Source: a virus
Lineage: Duplodnaviria > Heunggongvirae > Uroviricota > Caudoviricetes
Virus record (IMG/VR): IMGVR_UViG_2671180755_000015
DNA: 9,584 bases
Reading direction: 5' to 3' (one strand)
Part shown: piece after piece, positions 1 through 9,584 of the stretch
Numbering within the stretch: the first letter of the stretch is position 1
Layout of the letters: each line of letters starts with the position of its first letter
Position numbers and translations under genes: made by a program
Notes under the pieces: generated by a model
What the model was told of the DNA's origin: nothing
The model's input: only the letters and a program-made list of their open reading frames with translations
The model's database searches: none

Positions 1-24
1 CACTTACGCACATGATGATGATGA

Positions 25-100
25 CGATAAAATCAAAAAAATGCGCTTCTTTCCGCGCCGCCCGCCCCGTGTTCAGGCCCACCCCACCAGGAGGACCCGC
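25..100. repeat. Conserved ~75-nt element, copy A (paired with 2560-2637)
   Basis: By hand alignment roughly 80-85% identical to 2560-2637 in the same orientation (about 9 mismatches and 3 single-base indels). C-rich on plus strand, G-run-rich on minus strand. Lies directly beside the capsid-gene terminator. Confidence 0.7.
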
Positions 101-122
101 AAAAAAGGCGGCTGGTGCCGCC
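101..122 (-). terminator. Intrinsic terminator after the protease-capsid gene
   Basis: Hairpin GGCGGC-TGGT-GCCGCC (107-122) begins 6 nt after the capsid stop (129-131) and on the minus strand is followed by U6 (complement of A 101-106). Confidence 0.75.
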
Positions 123-128
123 TTGTTG

Positions 129-2018
129 TCATAGTGAATCTGTCCCGCCTGATTTGACCATACCGCGATAATCCAGAGCTGCCACACCTGCATCAATACG
201 GACTTTCCAGGCCACGCCGTCAACGATAAAACCTTCCTGCTGTTCAAGGTAAGGCTCGTCATTGCCATCAAGATAAGCCACCTCGATTGTGTCCGTTCCC
301 TGTGCGGAAAGCATGTACCATTGTTTTTCGCTGATATCATCAAGGCGGGGATCGACGATGATATCAAGTAGCTTGTGATACGGGTTAAAGATCCCGCTGT
401 TTTTATCAGCCCCGAAAGGTGCGGTTGAGTTAATCATCTGCAACGCGCGATCTTCCAGTGCTGCCGGAACTAAAAGGAATTTAGGCGCAATATTCAGCAC
501 TTCGCCATTTTTGTCCTTCTGTGTGCGCATCAGGTGACGTGCTGCACTAAGTCCCGGTGTTGTCAGTCCTGCTTCAATCAGGTTGCTGTGTTTTTTGTCA
601 AACAGCGCTATTCCGTCAGAAAGTTTTACGTTGCCTGTAAGCACCAGATTAACCAGATTTCCCACCGTTCTTGATGCAGCACGGCCCATAGCCATTGGCA
701 CCGTTGATAACTGATCAAGGTCATCATTGATTATCGCCTGGCGGGTAATGCTGAAAATATTCCCGTAAGTAGCCAGCGCGATGGGTTCACCGCGATCGCT
801 GGTGGTGATGTATTTATATTCTGCCCCTTCCGGCACTTTGTTTAACGTTGAGAAGCCATTCATACCAACGCGGCGGGCTTCCCGGAAGTTTGAAAGGGAA
901 CCTTTTTTCGTCCACTGGCGGAATGTTTCGCCGCTGTGCTCCCAGCCTGCAAGCACTGATTTTTCAGCGCCACCAGCAAGAATATCGGTAAAATCGCTGC
1001 TGCTGTGGGTGAATGCCGCGTTTACTATCTGCGAGCGTGTGCCGTAGCTGCCCGTGCTTATACCACGATGGGTTAATGATGCCTGTGCCATATCGAAAAG
1101 GCTCATCATGGCGTAAGGATTACCGCGTTCGGCCCGTTCGTGACCAAGACGCGCATTAAGCCCCTGGCGCATTGCATCGCCGGTTATGTTGCCGTTATCC
1201 GTGTACGCGTAGTAAAGATTTGCGGGGGTGGTTTTGTTTGTTGGCGTTGATTCTTTACCCATAGCGAGTAAAAGGCGTTCGCGTGCATTCTCAACGCTAC
1301 ATTCTGAATCAGCAAGACAACTTATAGCCAGGTCGTTATATCTTCCGTTGAACGTGCCAAACAATTCACGGATGCCGTTAAGTCGTTCCTGTTCGCCACT
1401 GGTAGTTTTCTGGCTGATCATGCTTTTAATTTTTTCCGGCATATTTGAAAAATCTCCGATTCGTTTTGATTCAATTCGGGCCATTGCTGTAATCGCGGGT
1501 ATAACCTCATCTGCGAAGCCGTTAGCCTTACACTCATTGCCATCCATCCAGGTTTCCGCCTCCATCATGGCGGTGATTTCCTGTTTGCTCCTGCCCGTTC
1601 TTCCGGCGTAGGTTTCCGCCATCGTGTCGCCCAGCTTGTCCATCAGGTCAGCAAAGCGGCGAACGTCGCCCGACACTCCGGCAGTAACACCACGGGGGGC
1701 ATGTATCATCATCATCGCGTTTTCAGGCATAACGATGTGATCGCCACACATGGCAATAAACGAGGCCATAGAAGCCGCCATGCCTTCAATGTGTACAATT
1801 TTCTTTGCCGGATGATTTTTCAGGGCGTTATAGATAGCCAGCCCTTCAAAGATGTCGCCACCAGGTGAATGGATGCGAAGATGGATTTCAGACGCATTAC
1901 CACACGCGTTGATCTCGTCAGTAAGTGCCGATGCTTTTACACCGTACCCGCCGATCTCGTCATAAATGCGCACATAGACAACATCTGCCATAGCCTTAAT
2001 GGAAAACCATGTTTTCAT
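129..2018 (-). CDS. Prohead protease (ClpP/S14-like) fused to an HK97-fold-type major capsid protein
   Basis: 629-aa ORF. The N-terminal ~190 aa carries ClpP-family signatures (serine motif GMAASMASF, histidine motif MMMIHAPRG). The remaining ~430 aa has the length and character of a scaffold-linker plus major capsid protein. The ATG at 2016-2018 overlaps the stop of the upstream small ORF (ATGA). Family assignment is from motif recognition only. Confidence 0.8.
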   Translation of the reverse strand: MKTWFSIKAMADVVYVRIYDEIGGYGVKASALTDEINACGNASEIHLRIHSPGGDIFEGLAIYNALKNHPAKKIVHIEGMAASMASFIAMCGDHIVMPENAMMMIHAPRGVTAGVSGDVRRFADLMDKLGDTMAETYAGRTGRSKQEITAMMEAETWMDGNECKANGFADEVIPAITAMARIESKRIGDFSNMPEKIKSMISQKTTSGEQERLNGIRELFGTFNGRYNDLAISCLADSECSVENARERLLLAMGKESTPTNKTTPANLYYAYTDNGNITGDAMRQGLNARLGHERAERGNPYAMMSLFDMAQASLTHRGISTGSYGTRSQIVNAAFTHSSSDFTDILAGGAEKSVLAGWEHSGETFRQWTKKGSLSNFREARRVGMNGFSTLNKVPEGAEYKYITTSDRGEPIALATYGNIFSITRQAIINDDLDQLSTVPMAMGRAASRTVGNLVNLVLTGNVKLSDGIALFDKKHSNLIEAGLTTPGLSAARHLMRTQKDKNGEVLNIAPKFLLVPAALEDRALQMINSTAPFGADKNSGIFNPYHKLLDIIVDPRLDDISEKQWYMLSAQGTDTIEVAYLDGNDEPYLEQQEGFIVDGVAWKVRIDAGVAALDYRGMVKSGGTDSL

Positions 2019-2209
2019 AGCCAGGCCCCTAACGTTGCCCTGTACCAGTATTCAACCGCGCTGCGTGTGATTTGTCCTTTCGTGGGTACTGGCATACCCG
2101 GGTGATTATCTTTGATGAACTGCTGATAGCGTTCGATCTTCTCCATAGTTCCGGCGTCTATGTGTACCGTGGCACTTTTATCCGGCTTTCTGGTGTTGTT
2201 CTCTGGCAT
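2015..2209 (-). CDS. Small protein (64 aa from preferred start) translationally coupled to the capsid gene; function unknown
   Basis: The ORF track gives 2015..2242 (75 aa), but its first ATG-ATG has no Shine-Dalgarno. The in-frame ATG at 2207-2209 is preceded by GGAGG at 7-nt spacing. The stop TGA overlaps the capsid ATG. Confidence 0.5.
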   Translation of the reverse strand: MPENNTRKPDKSATVHIDAGTMEKIERYQQFIKDNHPGMPVPTKGQITRSAVEYWYRATLGAWL

Positions 2210-7897: not shown

Positions 7898-7922
7898 AAA
7901 AAACCCCGCATTGCACGCGGGG
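7898..7922 (-). terminator. Intrinsic terminator between the alpA-like gene and the Bro-N gene
   Basis: Stem CCCCGC / GCGGGG (7904-7909 / 7917-7922) with a 7-nt loop. On the minus strand it is followed by U6 (A 7898-7903). Confidence 0.7.
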
Positions 7923-7936
7923 TATGAAAGATATTA

Positions 7937-8140
7937 TTAGTGGGGATTGGCTTGTTCTCGTTGTTTATCTAACCATGCTTCTACATCTCTACGGTGCCAG
8001 GTATGTCGTCGTCCAATTCTGAACGGCTGAGGAAAACCATTATTCTCATCTTTCCAGAAATTGATGAATGCACTCATTGCTCCATATCGCAAGATTTTCA
8101 TTACGTCTTTAGTAAATAAAATATCTTCATTGGTATTCAT
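7937..8140 (-). CDS. AlpA-family (excisionase-like HTH) DNA-binding regulator
   Basis: Matches the AlpA pattern (ILFTKDVMKILRYGAMSAFINFWKDENNGFPQPFRIGRRHTWHRRDVEAWL). The ORF track starts at 8161, but the in-frame ATG at 8138-8140 has a strong SD (GAGGAGG at 8 nt), giving 67 aa. Lies 13 nt after the integrase stop. Confidence 0.75.
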   Translation of the reverse strand: MNTNEDILFTKDVMKILRYGAMSAFINFWKDENNGFPQPFRIGRRHTWHRRDVEAWLDKQREQANPH

Positions 8141-8153
8141 TTGCTGAACCTCC

Positions 8154-9392
8154 TCAACCATTTACTACTCTTAAACCTTTCATACCACCGGATCTATTAA
8201 TTACCCCTTTTCTCGCATCATCAAAAAAATCACCGACCCATTGCATCATGATCTTACGCTGTTCTAGATAAGTAGTTCTATTATAAACATCTCTTATTTT
8301 ATCACCACTTTTATGCGCCAATGCAGCCTCGATTACATCGGGGTTAAATCCCTCCTCATTTAAAAGCGTACTCCACATTGAACGAAAACCATGTAACGTT
8401 ACAATCCCTTTGAACTTGCTGGCAGCAATTGGGGTCTTGATAGTATTCCTCCCCATAGGCGCATCTTTTGTTCTGGAGGAAAAAAACACATAACGCCCTC
8501 TTTTTATTTCCTGCATTGTTCTGAGGATACTAATAGCCTGTGATGACAAGGGAACAACATGTTCACGATGGCATTTCATTTTATGCGCGGGGATAATCCA
8601 CAAGCCAGAATCAAAATCAATCTCTGACCACTCTGCTTTAATCGCCTCACCTGGCCTGACCATTGTCAATATCTGGAATAAAAGTGCATTATGAGCTATT
8701 TGATAGGTATGAGGCACACTATCCCACCAGCTCAGAAATTCAGGCAATCTTTCAACAGGTAGTGCTGCTAATGATTTATTTTTCTTTCCTGTGAATGCAG
8801 TCTTTATCTTAAGTAATGGATTTGTTTTCAATGTTCCACAATTTACAGCATAATTCATAATTTCATTTAATCTTGATATTAATTTTTTTTGCAACGCATT
8901 CTTATCGGATACGGCATCCAGAGCATTAATAGCTACTGGTGCTGTAATTTTTTCTATACTGTACTTACCAAAGAAAGGAACAAGATATTTGTATACTTCA
9001 TATTCGATATTATACAGCGTAGGTTTCCGCAATTCAGATCCCTTTTTAAAAGCGAACCATGCATTAGCAACAGCTTCAAATGTCTGTAGATTTTTTAGTG
9101 ACATCTCAATTTTACGATTTTTCTTCTCCGTCACTGGATCAACTCCACGTGCAATCATTCGCCGAAGTTCATCACGTACTTCCCGTGCTTCCGCGAGTGA
9201 GAATTCAGGAAAACGTCCTATCGTGTATGTCTGCCGTTTCTTCGTTATCGGATGGCTATAACGGAAACGCCACACTTTCCCACCGGCTTTACTCACATTC
9301 AGCAATAAACCGAACCCATCATAAACGGCATAGTCCTTTTCACGTGGTTTCATCCCCTTAACTTCAGTCACGGTTAATGGCTTTACCGACAT
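8154..9392 (-). CDS. int: Tyrosine site-specific integrase (P4-type)
   Basis: 412 aa. C-terminal catalytic-domain signatures are present (TMVRPGEA, HREHVVPL, TLHGFRSMWST, and a tyrosine in DVYNRTTY). The N-terminal domain is consistent with the arm-binding region of P4-family integrases. ATG at 9390-9392 with SD GAGGG. Confidence 0.9.
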   Translation of the reverse strand: MSVKPLTVTEVKGMKPREKDYAVYDGFGLLLNVSKAGGKVWRFRYSHPITKKRQTYTIGRFPEFSLAEAREVRDELRRMIARGVDPVTEKKNRKIEMSLKNLQTFEAVANAWFAFKKGSELRKPTLYNIEYEVYKYLVPFFGKYSIEKITAPVAINALDAVSDKNALQKKLISRLNEIMNYAVNCGTLKTNPLLKIKTAFTGKKNKSLAALPVERLPEFLSWWDSVPHTYQIAHNALLFQILTMVRPGEAIKAEWSEIDFDSGLWIIPAHKMKCHREHVVPLSSQAISILRTMQEIKRGRYVFFSSRTKDAPMGRNTIKTPIAASKFKGIVTLHGFRSMWSTLLNEEGFNPDVIEAALAHKSGDKIRDVYNRTTYLEQRKIMMQWVGDFFDDARKGVINRSGGMKGLRVVNG

Positions 9393-9584
9393 CTATCGCC
9401 CTCATTTTTTAGTCCGTCATGTAGTCCATTCAAGCCAATAACAAGCGATAAACTAACTCATTATCAAGCAAAGAGAGGAAACTCATAAAATCACAACTCA
9501 TTGAAAAGACTATGAAACGACACCAGAACATACAAACAGGTAAGAAATGTACCCTACATCCAAAATGACGCAATCCGGGAGTTT

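Follow-up and report, generated by a model that had tools for sequence, protein, structure and literature searches.

Helper-embedded phage-inducible chromosomal islands (HE-PICIs) have as their founder Eco567.11capE (hereafter 11capE) of E. coli NRG857c (Tommasini, Mageeney & Williams 2023, NAR Genom Bioinform, PMC10111431). Mitomycin C induces excision and replication of the 11capE composite, followed by precise excision of the satellite, and virions could not be recovered (Tommasini et al. 2023, PMC10111431). The core of proteobacterial PICIs normally includes a capsid-morphogenesis gene, and capsid-forming PICIs (cfPICIs) are set apart from PICIs by portal, terS, terL and head-tail adaptor/connector genes (de Sousa et al. 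2023, PMC10085698). For gram-negative PICIs (e.g. EcCICFT073, Fillol-Salom et al. 2018), the definition follows the summary in de Sousa et al. 2023 (PMC10085698). Helper embedding itself has been known since 2023; the integrase lineage and the target site described here are outside the published survey.

The window, that is, the whole stretch of 9,584 nucleotides analysed here, is 100% identical over its full length to E. coli 2013C-3342 (NZ_CP027766.1). In this genome, 9.56 kb of the window form part of an element of 10,347 bp that has a 12-bp direct repeat at either end. The left element end lies ~0.8 kb past window position 1, and that part adds only one 94-aa ORF. The right end is found within the window:

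9552-9563, unstranded: att core CCCTCCATCCAA, int-proximal junction and right element end; the same 12-mer lies 10,347 bp leftward (L001 17205-17216)
9564-9584: helper prophage terL sequence, outside the element, to the right of the att core

The interrupted gene is a gpA-type terL of a lambdoid prophage, with 5' and 3' pseudogene halves annotated on either flank. Joining the flanks rebuilds an intact terL, the same allele as in 494 genomes, and in uninterrupted terL CCCTCCATCCAA is present once. The break falls at residue ~333, the start of GpA_nuclease (Pfam), and the crossover block is likely the 7 bp CATCCAA (= TTGGATG). The preliminary description had read this DNA as a discrete integrative satellite related to PICIs and P4 and not as a complete prophage, which agrees with an att-bounded element that carries no tail, lysis or terminase genes. 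The direct repeat that it proposed to look for was indeed found at both element ends; a tRNA target, proposed there as one option, is absent, the target being helper terL. Tail and lysis genes, which it took as signs of a full prophage, are present in the flanks, but they are the helper's, and the full prophage they were held to imply was wrong.

Across 5426 complete E. coli genomes, 73 contained the int/terL junction, in various prophages and serotypes, and one copy of the element with identical ends was seen at an unrelated chromosomal site. Its occurrence in different prophages and serotypes, and once elsewhere with the same ends, indicates that the element is a discrete mobile unit. The int, alpA-like, primase and other core genes are co-oriented with helper terS, terL, portal and major capsid protein (MCP) genes on the minus strand. 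We consider it very probable that the window represents most of a 10,347-bp PICI-type satellite lying inside a lambdoid prophage terL in the same orientation, that is, a helper-embedded PICI.

As in described HE-PICIs, a prophage late gene is disrupted with att identity blocks at both ends, the size is 10-11 kb, and four ordered zones (int/AlpA, Bro, replication and late) show the same gene-for-gene order as 11capE. The two share a block of Icd-like, DUF4222, primase, 81-aa protein and SSB genes; in addition, the capsid gene is from the same family as the helper's, and a cos-like segment is held in common with the helper. Gram-negative PICIs likewise combine a terminal integrase with an AlpA-type regulator (here a weak candidate), have an origin next to the primase-replicase, encode a capsid-morphogenesis protein and use cos-type packaging by a lambdoid helper (here predicted), and they lack tail and lysis genes. 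However, classical members are integrated elsewhere in the chromosome, apart from the helper, and affect it in trans only, whereas this element is inside helper terL. Family searches agree with the minus-strand gene order given in the preliminary description (int, AlpA-like, Bro-N, small genes, replication protein, SSB, capsid fusion), although weakly for AlpA. The SSB, Bro-N and small genes, which had been regarded as non-canonical, belong to the layout already described for gram-negative PICIs and HE-PICIs.

The integration module occupies the right end of the element:

8154-9392, minus strand: tyrosine integrase of P4/CP4-57 type with arm-binding domain (Pfam Arm-DNA-bind_3, Phage_int_M and Phage_integrase, E 1e-20 to 5e-23)
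9410-9427, minus strand: doubled GGACTA, candidate integrase arm-type site, at +133 and +145 relative to the crossover centre
7937-8140, minus strand: small HTH protein of 67 aa in the AlpA/excisionase position; a longer ORF to 8161 overlaps the int stop
7903-7923, minus strand: strong terminator-like hairpin 3' of the int and alpA-like genes (L001 25923-25903; 9 pairs, 6 GC)

The small HTH protein matches Pfam HTH_17 at E=0.005, below the cut-off, and PHROG 66 (excisionase/regulator) at E=9e-7, and relatives with 69-78% identity carry the NCBI name AlpA family. It gave no match to Pfam Phage_AlpA or to NCBIfam models, and similarity to its 11capE counterpart was not detectable; the assignment to AlpA is a weak one. 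A doublet matching the candidate arm site lies beyond the window at -85 and -73, the doubled motif overall being G(G/T)ACTA, and a GGACTA doublet is found just 5' of int in most sampled relatives, single or degenerate in some. The co-oriented doubled attP motifs are placed at about -80 and +132, much as published for HE-PICIs (about -81 and +132), but the published motif is TGTATTGC, and doubled TGTATTGC had no match in the element or the reconstructed attP with up to 3 mismatches allowed. The att core sequence was not found in the available copies of the supplementary files of Tommasini et al. 2023.

The integrase also differs from that of HE-PICIs. It is 25% identical to the 11capE integrase and scores 86 bits, against the at least 400 bits to 11capE Int that were the inclusion cut-off in Tommasini et al. 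2023, and a relative with 59% identity reaches 90 bits against 11capE Int. The target, a gpA-family terL, is likewise distinct from the published terminase sites, which are all of the Terminase_1 family. The 99%-identity cluster of this integrase comprises 657 sequences in E. coli. Among relatives at 45-87% identity, all ten sampled lie directly downstream of phage late genes, and those at 42% identity or less are at tRNA or tmRNA sites. Among the late-gene targets are gpA-type terL (Escherichia, Salmonella, Rahnella), the terminase region of another phage type, a portal, major capsid genes, a region of lambda-like tail genes and the baseplate region of a myovirus. With its integrase lineage lying beyond the published clade and its relatives at late genes, the element points to a second late-gene-targeting integrase clade, which suggests that targeting of late genes extends further than has been reported. 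Slightly more likely than not is the fuller reading that this P4/CP4-57-like clade evolved independently, that its members target prophage late genes specifically and that embedding is a recurrent, convergent strategy. The present branch would then parasitise the lambdoid prophage family to which Stx-converting phages belong, would gate the helper terminase through its own excision, and would bring a satellite-specific protease-scaffold-capsid fusion that may set capsid size.

Leftward of the integration module lie the Bro zone and the replication module:

7299-7877, minus strand: Bro-N domain protein, anti-repressor-like (Pfam Bro-N 4.9e-20; phrog_2593 anti-repressor 1.5e-85)
6679-6906, plus strand: 75-aa hypothetical protein (RefSeq annotation only; no family match)
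6442-6621, plus strand: YlcI/YnfO-family small protein of the variable Bro zone (RefSeq annotation; phrog_949)
6331-6380, unstranded: promoter-like sites in divergent orientation, flanked by the Icd-like operon and the plus-strand genes (consensus matches only)
6042-6245, minus strand: Icd-like protein, host cell division inhibitor family (NF033153, 69 bits vs cut-off 25)
5729-6049, minus strand: 106-aa protein, function unknown (phrog_15327)
5423-5722, minus strand: DUF4222 protein (Pfam 9.8e-17)
3609-5426, minus strand: D5/P4-alpha-type primase-helicase (D5_N, DUF5906, Pox_D5)
3373-3595, unstranded: iteron-type origin, AT-rich (GC 0.40), with 9 copies of GGTGAACAG in both orientations
3076-3321, minus strand: 81-aa conserved replication-zone protein (phrog_1231; 90% identical to its 11capE counterpart)
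2669-3079, minus strand: SSB (Pfam SSB 4.6e-15; 66% identical to 11capE SSB)
2643-2661, minus strand: terminator-like hairpin after the SSB gene (L001 20661-20643)

In this region the element resembles 11capE, with 86% identity between the Icd-like proteins, 87% between the primases, and 92% DNA identity over 2.3 kb that include the iteron origin. The origin had been proposed from the sequence, and the count upholds it: nine of the ten GGTGAACAG matches in the window fall within 3373-3595, compared with 0.06 expected in the whole window.

Further left lie a capsid gene, a small ORF and two cos-like sequences:

2475-2641, minus strand: cos-like copy A, with cosN-like core and terS-proximal (cosB-side) part (89.8% over 167 nt to helper L001 29064-29229)
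2015-2209, minus strand: small ORF, 64 aa as annotated (WP_001114742.1; phrog_4934, function unknown, E 2e-42)
129-2018, minus strand: ClpP-like prohead protease/scaffold/major capsid fusion, 629 aa (Pfam CLP_protease 3.8e-33, Phage_capsid_4 8e-55)
1-104, minus strand: cos-like copy B, with cosN-like core and upstream side (87% over 108 nt to helper L001 29123-29229)

The capsid fusion scores 892 bits against NCBIfam NF045540 (cut-off 475) and is the only element gene with a helper homologue. Identity to the helper's own fusion is 52%, with ~35 aa fewer in the linker; the alignment shows conserved ClpP-type motifs, GxAASM(A) and H-x-P, and phage records above 52% identity were not found. This gene type is that of EHEC lambdoid and Stx phages, whereas 11capE carries a lambda E type. 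The small ORF extends to 2242 and overlaps, with its stop, the start of the capsid gene. A terminator-like hairpin, GGCGGCACCAGCCGCC with a T-run behind it, immediately follows the capsid gene.

A repeated 3' element noted in the preliminary description proved to be the two cos-like copies, at 2475-2641 and about 1-104. The helper match of copy A is directly upstream of helper terS, and its ~90% identity to the helper cos region points to a packaging signal like the helper's. Within copy A, ACGGGGCGG..GCGGCGCGG resembles lambda cosN. Copy B, whose helper match is just upstream of helper terS, is without the terS-proximal (cosB-side) part, extends 3 nt beyond the left window edge and is kept in three other element copies; a second, partial cos copy of this kind is a further difference from HE-PICIs. 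Pfam and PHROG scans revealed neither terS nor an Rpp-like redirecting gene in the element.

A major capsid protein and prohead protease of its own are features that the element has in common with cfPICIs of the EcCIEDL933 type, which build their own heads and take only tails from the helper. The preliminary description had suggested this capsid-forming class for it, as a full-length protease-scaffold-MCP fusion with conserved ClpP-type motifs would allow. However, genes for portal, terS, terL, head-tail adaptor and connector are all missing from the att-bounded 10,347 bp, which end ~0.8 kb left of the window, and the adjoining portal and terminase genes are the helper's own, terL being the interrupted gene. 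Since the neighbouring portal, tail and lysis genes belong to the prophage, the element is not a cfPICI, and this very unlikely reading is refuted by the element boundaries.

A P4-like satellite depending on a P2-type helper is extremely improbable. The P4-type integrase architecture with its N-terminal arm-binding domain (Arm-DNA-bind_3), the presence of an Icd-like gene and a length near 10-11 kb do recall P4, and the primase-helicase matches the C-terminal domain model TIGR01613 ('phage/plasmid primase, P4 family') at E 3.5e-27, with 95 bits, below the 108.7-bit cut-off. Yet no Psu, Sid, Delta or Ash/epsilon homologue was found in Pfam, PHROG or NCBIfam scans, and the element carries a capsid gene of EHEC lambdoid/Stx phage type in place of an external scaffold. 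Moreover, the cos sequences match a lambdoid prophage, and it is inside such a prophage, not P2, that the element is located.

For a helper-embedded PICI, we infer excision, replication, packaging and a role of the capsid gene by analogy. In the lysogen, the satellite would be silent with terL split, and because of this split the helper would be unable to package DNA. Upon SOS induction the composite would be replicated, and Q-antiterminated helper late transcription from terS and 5' terL would reach int and the AlpA-like gene. Integrase and the excisionase-like protein would then recombine the 7-bp TTGGATG blocks, yielding a circular satellite and a rebuilt terL. Satellite replication is expected at the iteron origin through its own D5-type primase-helicase and SSB, and the satellite cos (~90% identical to the helper's) would direct packaging by the restored helper terminase, with helper tails joining the heads. 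A probable role of the diverged protease-scaffold-capsid fusion is to modify the procapsid shell or to provide it, e.g. as a smaller shell suited to 10 kb.

A helper-embedded satellite makes a prophage structural gene into a satellite-controlled switch, and here the switch is the large terminase: the helper would package no DNA until the satellite leaves. Owing to such satellites, prophages that may only be interrupted are also scored as 'defective'. The helpers belong to a lambdoid prophage family of enterohaemorrhagic E. coli that includes Stx-converting phages, and such satellites could therefore modulate the spread of phages and toxin genes. If the second-clade reading is true, helper embedding is not a quirk of one lineage.

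The int-proximal junction of 2013C-3342 departs from the other copies. It reads CCAAATG, whereas intact terL and the copy in strain 146N4 have CCAAAATG; other full-length int/terL junction matches are 1 nt longer, and 2013C-3342 also has C where other copies carry the attP-type A. Because of the 1-nt deletion in the A-run, excision would leave terL frameshifted, unless this is a homopolymer assembly error. These changes would suit an immobilised relic: the family as such would be, or would have been, a helper-embedded satellite, with satellite and helper in 2013C-3342 being dead cargo and the insertion simply inactivating the prophage. In the same direction point the many HE-PICI helpers that look truncated (Tommasini et al. 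2023, PMC10111431) and a Raoultella relative that has lost the remainder of its helper. We nevertheless regard a relic as unlikely: the 1-nt difference lies in a homopolymer of an assembly from the long-read era, where it may be erroneous, the helper late operon is still complete in 2013C-3342, and every satellite ORF is intact, with identical or near-identical counterparts in other strains (shared WP_ accessions).

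The window is 100% identical to part of the chromosome of E. coli 2013C-3342 (NZ_CP027766.1), where the annotated surroundings are those of a lambdoid prophage with a Q antiterminator, holin, lysozyme, Rz, DUF1441 small terminase gene (terS), portal, its own ClpP/MCP fusion, and head-tail and tail genes through J and Lom. The large terminase gene (terL) of this helper prophage is annotated as two pseudogenes, a 5' part that starts 1 nt past the att core near the right end of the window and a 3' part ~0.8 kb to the left of the window. Each breakpoint carries the 12-bp direct repeat CCCTCCATCCAA, the two copies lying at a distance of 10,347 bp, and the joined flanks occur as uninterrupted sequence, with an intact terL annotation, in a further 494 complete E. 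coli genomes. The break falls at residue ~333, at the start of the GpA_nuclease domain after GpA_ATPase (Pfam). The predicted satellite attP junction is ...GTACCCT[A/C]CATCCAA|GAAGAAGTAAAT..., and the predicted restored attB in terL is ...GGCCCCTCCATCCAAAATGACG.... A protein-coding gene of the phage serves as the target, and no tRNA or tmRNA gene is present in the window. Beyond the window the element holds one 94-aa ORF and the attP arm, and no portal or terminase genes were found in the part past the left edge. The satellite interpretation of the preliminary description is borne out; the decisive context, insertion in the helper terL, lay outside its view.

In other copies the int-proximal junction, read in the integrase orientation, is TTGGATG|TAGGGTA, from which it follows that attP and attB share the 7-bp identity block TTGGATG, which covers the Trp-Met codons of a conserved SFWMEG stretch in terL. 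In Salmonella and Rahnella, integrases of 76% and 68% identity, respectively, use this site in terL. In 2013C-3342 this junction (window 9552-9567; 27552-27567 of L001, the extended locus) reads CCCTCCATCCAAATG, one A fewer than in O157:H7 strain 146N4 (CCCTACATCCAAAATG) and intact terL (CCAAAATG); the remaining full-length junction matches are also 1 nt longer. It further carries an attB-type C where other copies have an attP-type A. The missing A, if real, would leave terL frameshifted after excision; alternatively, it may be a homopolymer assembly error.

All large, family-supported ORFs of the window lie on the minus strand, as determined by ORF calling and family searches.

Genes of the satellite within the window, in order from the integrase
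8154-9392, minus: tyrosine integrase with arm-binding domain (family searches)
7937-8140, minus: 67-aa HTH protein in the AlpA/excisionase position
7299-7877, minus: Bro-N protein
6442-6906, plus, variable zone: two small genes, YlcI/YnfO family and hypothetical
6042-6245, minus: Icd-like protein
between Icd-like and DUF4222, minus: 106-aa unknown protein
between the 106-aa protein and primase-helicase, minus: DUF4222 protein
3609-5426, minus: primase-helicase (D5_N/DUF5906/Pox_D5)
between primase and SSB, minus: 81-aa conserved protein
2669-3079, minus: SSB
between SSB and capsid fusion, minus: 64-aa ORF
129-2018, minus: ClpP-protease/scaffold/major-capsid fusion, 629 aa (NCBIfam NF045540, 892 bits)

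These results confirm the minus-strand gene order read earlier from the sequence; only the AlpA label of the 67-aa HTH protein is weak, and a PDB sequence search with this protein gave no significant match (lambda Xis, E 0.98). The AT-rich gap between the primase and 81-aa genes contains nine GGTGAACAG iterons in both orientations, with 0.06 expected window-wide. A 370-aa TTG-started ORF in the variable zone (6042-7154, minus strand), which is without a family match and overlaps the annotated Icd-like gene and two plus-strand genes, was judged spurious. Other long ORFs, which overlap annotated genes on both strands and are likewise without family matches, were judged non-genes. Rfam searches at permissive thresholds identified no P4-type C4/isrK immunity RNA in the window; the sole match, MIR5380 (L001 21423-21536, window 3423-3536; 32 bits, gathering score 150), was rejected as an artefact because the inverted iterons of the origin form a repeat structure there.

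A full-text literature search turned up a single paper bearing directly on the element (Tommasini, Mageeney & Williams 2023, PMC10111431), which is also the only one in which the term HE-PICI (helper-embedded PICI) was found; the literature search yielded no integrative elements in EHEC terminase genes. For the founder, 11capE of E. coli NRG857c, mitomycin C led to the composite's excision and replication, followed by precise excision of the satellite, and 491 further HE-PICIs were mapped at 14 sites, with inclusion requiring an integrase that scored 400 bits or more against that of 11capE (PMC10111431). The SSB, Bro-N and small genes had initially been regarded as novel, mistakenly, as they belong to the known gene layout of gram-negative PICIs and HE-PICIs.

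Comparison with the 11capE sequence revealed a common gene order: int and HTH; a variable zone with YlcI; Icd-like, small ORF and DUF4222; primase, 81-aa protein and SSB; and the capsid gene. Amino acid identity to 11capE is 87% for the primase, 90% for the 81-aa protein and 86% for the Icd-like protein, and a 2.3-kb replication segment is 92% identical at the nucleotide level. In contrast, the integrase is only 25% identical to that of 11capE (86 bits), the HTH proteins give no BLASTP match, and the doubled TGTATTGC attP motif of 11capE is absent from the satellite; judged from sequence, the two integration modules are unrelated. The reconstructed attP does carry doubled G(G/T)ACTA motifs in a common orientation, at -85/-73 and +133/+145 relative to the crossover centre, close in geometry to the -81/+132 of the published HE-PICI motif but different in sequence, and a GGACTA-type doublet upstream of int was seen in most relatives. 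The HE-PICI terminase sites of PMC10111431 are all Terminase_1-family genes, and the accessible supplementary tables and att alignments contain neither the att core, in either orientation, nor the assembly accession of the window. Since the gene order and replication module are shared and the integration module is unrelated, the satellite is a mosaic relative of the published HE-PICIs, with another integrase lineage, target and capsid type. HE-PICIs as a kind have been known since 2023; this satellite adds a member whose integrase lineage and att site are distinct, and it points to a wider phenomenon.

In a protein search the relatives of the integrase formed a graded series. Their insertion contexts were sampled in ten look-ups at 45-87% identity (nine proteins and the window's own copy), the tenth being another locus, with a different arrangement, for the 59%-identical E. 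coli protein. In all ten, phage late genes in the same orientation directly precede the integrase gene; this is a small sample in which the upstream side was read, and both att sites were mapped for the window's element alone.

Genes upstream of the integrase in relatives (identity to the window's integrase)
Salmonella, 76%: gpA terL
Rahnella, 68%: gpA terL
Salmonella, 63%: portal_2 and Peptidase_S78-type ORF
E. coli, 59%: lambda-like E, FI, FII, two more ORFs
Raoultella, 52%: truncated Major_capside gene (profile positions 4-65 of 251)
E. coli, 51%: portal_3, Mu_F, DUF2213
Enterobacter, 49%: myovirus sheath-initiator (baseplate) gene
E. coli (locus L100), 49%: HNH, terS, 93-aa ORF coupled to terS
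Pantoea, 45%: Terminase_3 and portal_3

The 93-aa ORF between terS and int in L100 has no Pfam match and is probably the N-terminus of a truncated terL. The Raoultella relative was rejected as a clean nested example, its helper being truncated. Relatives at or below 42% identity occupy tRNA/tmRNA sites at 21 of the 24 loci checked, and also at the Pectobacterium and Serratia loci. A scan of species-representative genomes returned only relatives at or below 40%, in tRNA/tmRNA sites, which serve as an outgroup only, and no deposited phage genome carries an integrase above 39% identity. These contexts support a putative clade of integrases with late-gene tropism, second to that of 11capE, which the published survey could not reach because of its design.

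The same integrase lineage is found with varied replication modules, including a DUF927 primase, an AAA_25 helicase and a Zn-ribbon/Toprim/D5 primase (L088 of Salmonella enterica, L089-L091 and L100), which shows free module exchange among such satellites. A 42-kb contig (L093; ENA ERZ2947210 vOTU_01619) with a 52%-identical integrase holds a satellite inside a truncated major capsid gene; its label as a viral OTU prompts the question whether composites of helper and satellite are packaged at all or are just predicted prophages.

Two stretches of the satellite match helper sequence just 5' of the helper terS.

Cos-like copies in the satellite
2475-2641, between SSB and capsid module: copy A, 90% identical over 167 nt, terS-proximal side included
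~1-104, just past the capsid gene: copy B, 87% identical over 108 nt, core only

The copies are co-oriented, 2.5 kb apart, and bracket the capsid module (64-aa ORF and MCP fusion). Both are conserved in four genomes, and the terS-proximal side is kept in copy A only. Within their common core lies ACGGGGCGG..GCGGCGCGG, which is similar to lambda cosN. The position of copy A is that of cos in other PICIs and 11capE; copy B may represent a cos for termination only, a scar left by capsid-module capture, or a substrate for module deletion.

The capsid fusion is the sole satellite protein with a helper homologue; the two share 52% identity, and the satellite version has a protease-capsid linker shorter by ~35 residues. 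Among 50,697 phage records its best matches, also at ~52%, are the fusions encoded by Stx-converting phages and their lambdoid relatives from EHEC, a ceiling that indicates an old, satellite-specific version and no recent copy. Nor is it a "backup" for the disrupted gene, because that gene is terL. De Sousa et al. 2023 count a capsid-morphogenesis gene among the core PICI components and require a capsid-forming PICI to have terL together with genes for the head-tail adaptor and connector. The satellite lacks this set, and its suggested placement in the capsid-forming class is wrong.

Apart from composite replication, which was shown for 11capE, the following sequence of events is inferred. The satellite would lie silent inside terL, leaving the helper without functional terminase. 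Upon induction the composite would replicate, and Q-antiterminated late transcription would reach int, 168 nt beyond the junction, reading past the terminator-like hairpins that follow alpA and SSB. Int and the AlpA-like protein would then excise the satellite and rebuild terL, followed by satellite replication from the iterons and recognition of cos copy A by the restored terminase. The satellite capsid fusion would form, or co-assemble into, procapsids, possibly smaller ones. Given the packaging limits of lambda, a full-size head would also hold roughly four units of 10.3 kb.

Of 5426 complete E. coli genomes, 73 carry the int/terL junction, O157:H7 and O121 among them. In O121, another, diverged prophage at a separate chromosomal locus serves as helper. 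The satellite cos copies of O121 RM8352 (L007 5976-6142, 3497-3604, 14558-14663) are 91% and 86% identical to the 2013C-3342 helper cos region, to which the resident helper's own is 75% identical; this satellite may therefore be mismatched to its current prophage. In E. coli RM10410, a 97%-identical element whose ends are the same and whose integrase is 99% identical occupies the mppA-pgrR intergenic region outside any prophage (L005 3190-3215, 14405-14425); the sequence at its insertion point resembles the core (CCATCAAA / CATCCAAAAA), and this looks like an off-target integration. The satellite is thus a discrete mobile unit. Strain 2014C-4423 (NZ_CP027454.1) carries two such satellites, at ~2.52 Mb and 3.37 Mb, the former at an int/terL junction. 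Matches to the window occur at 1-7 places per genome over 1942 genomes, mostly via shared modules.
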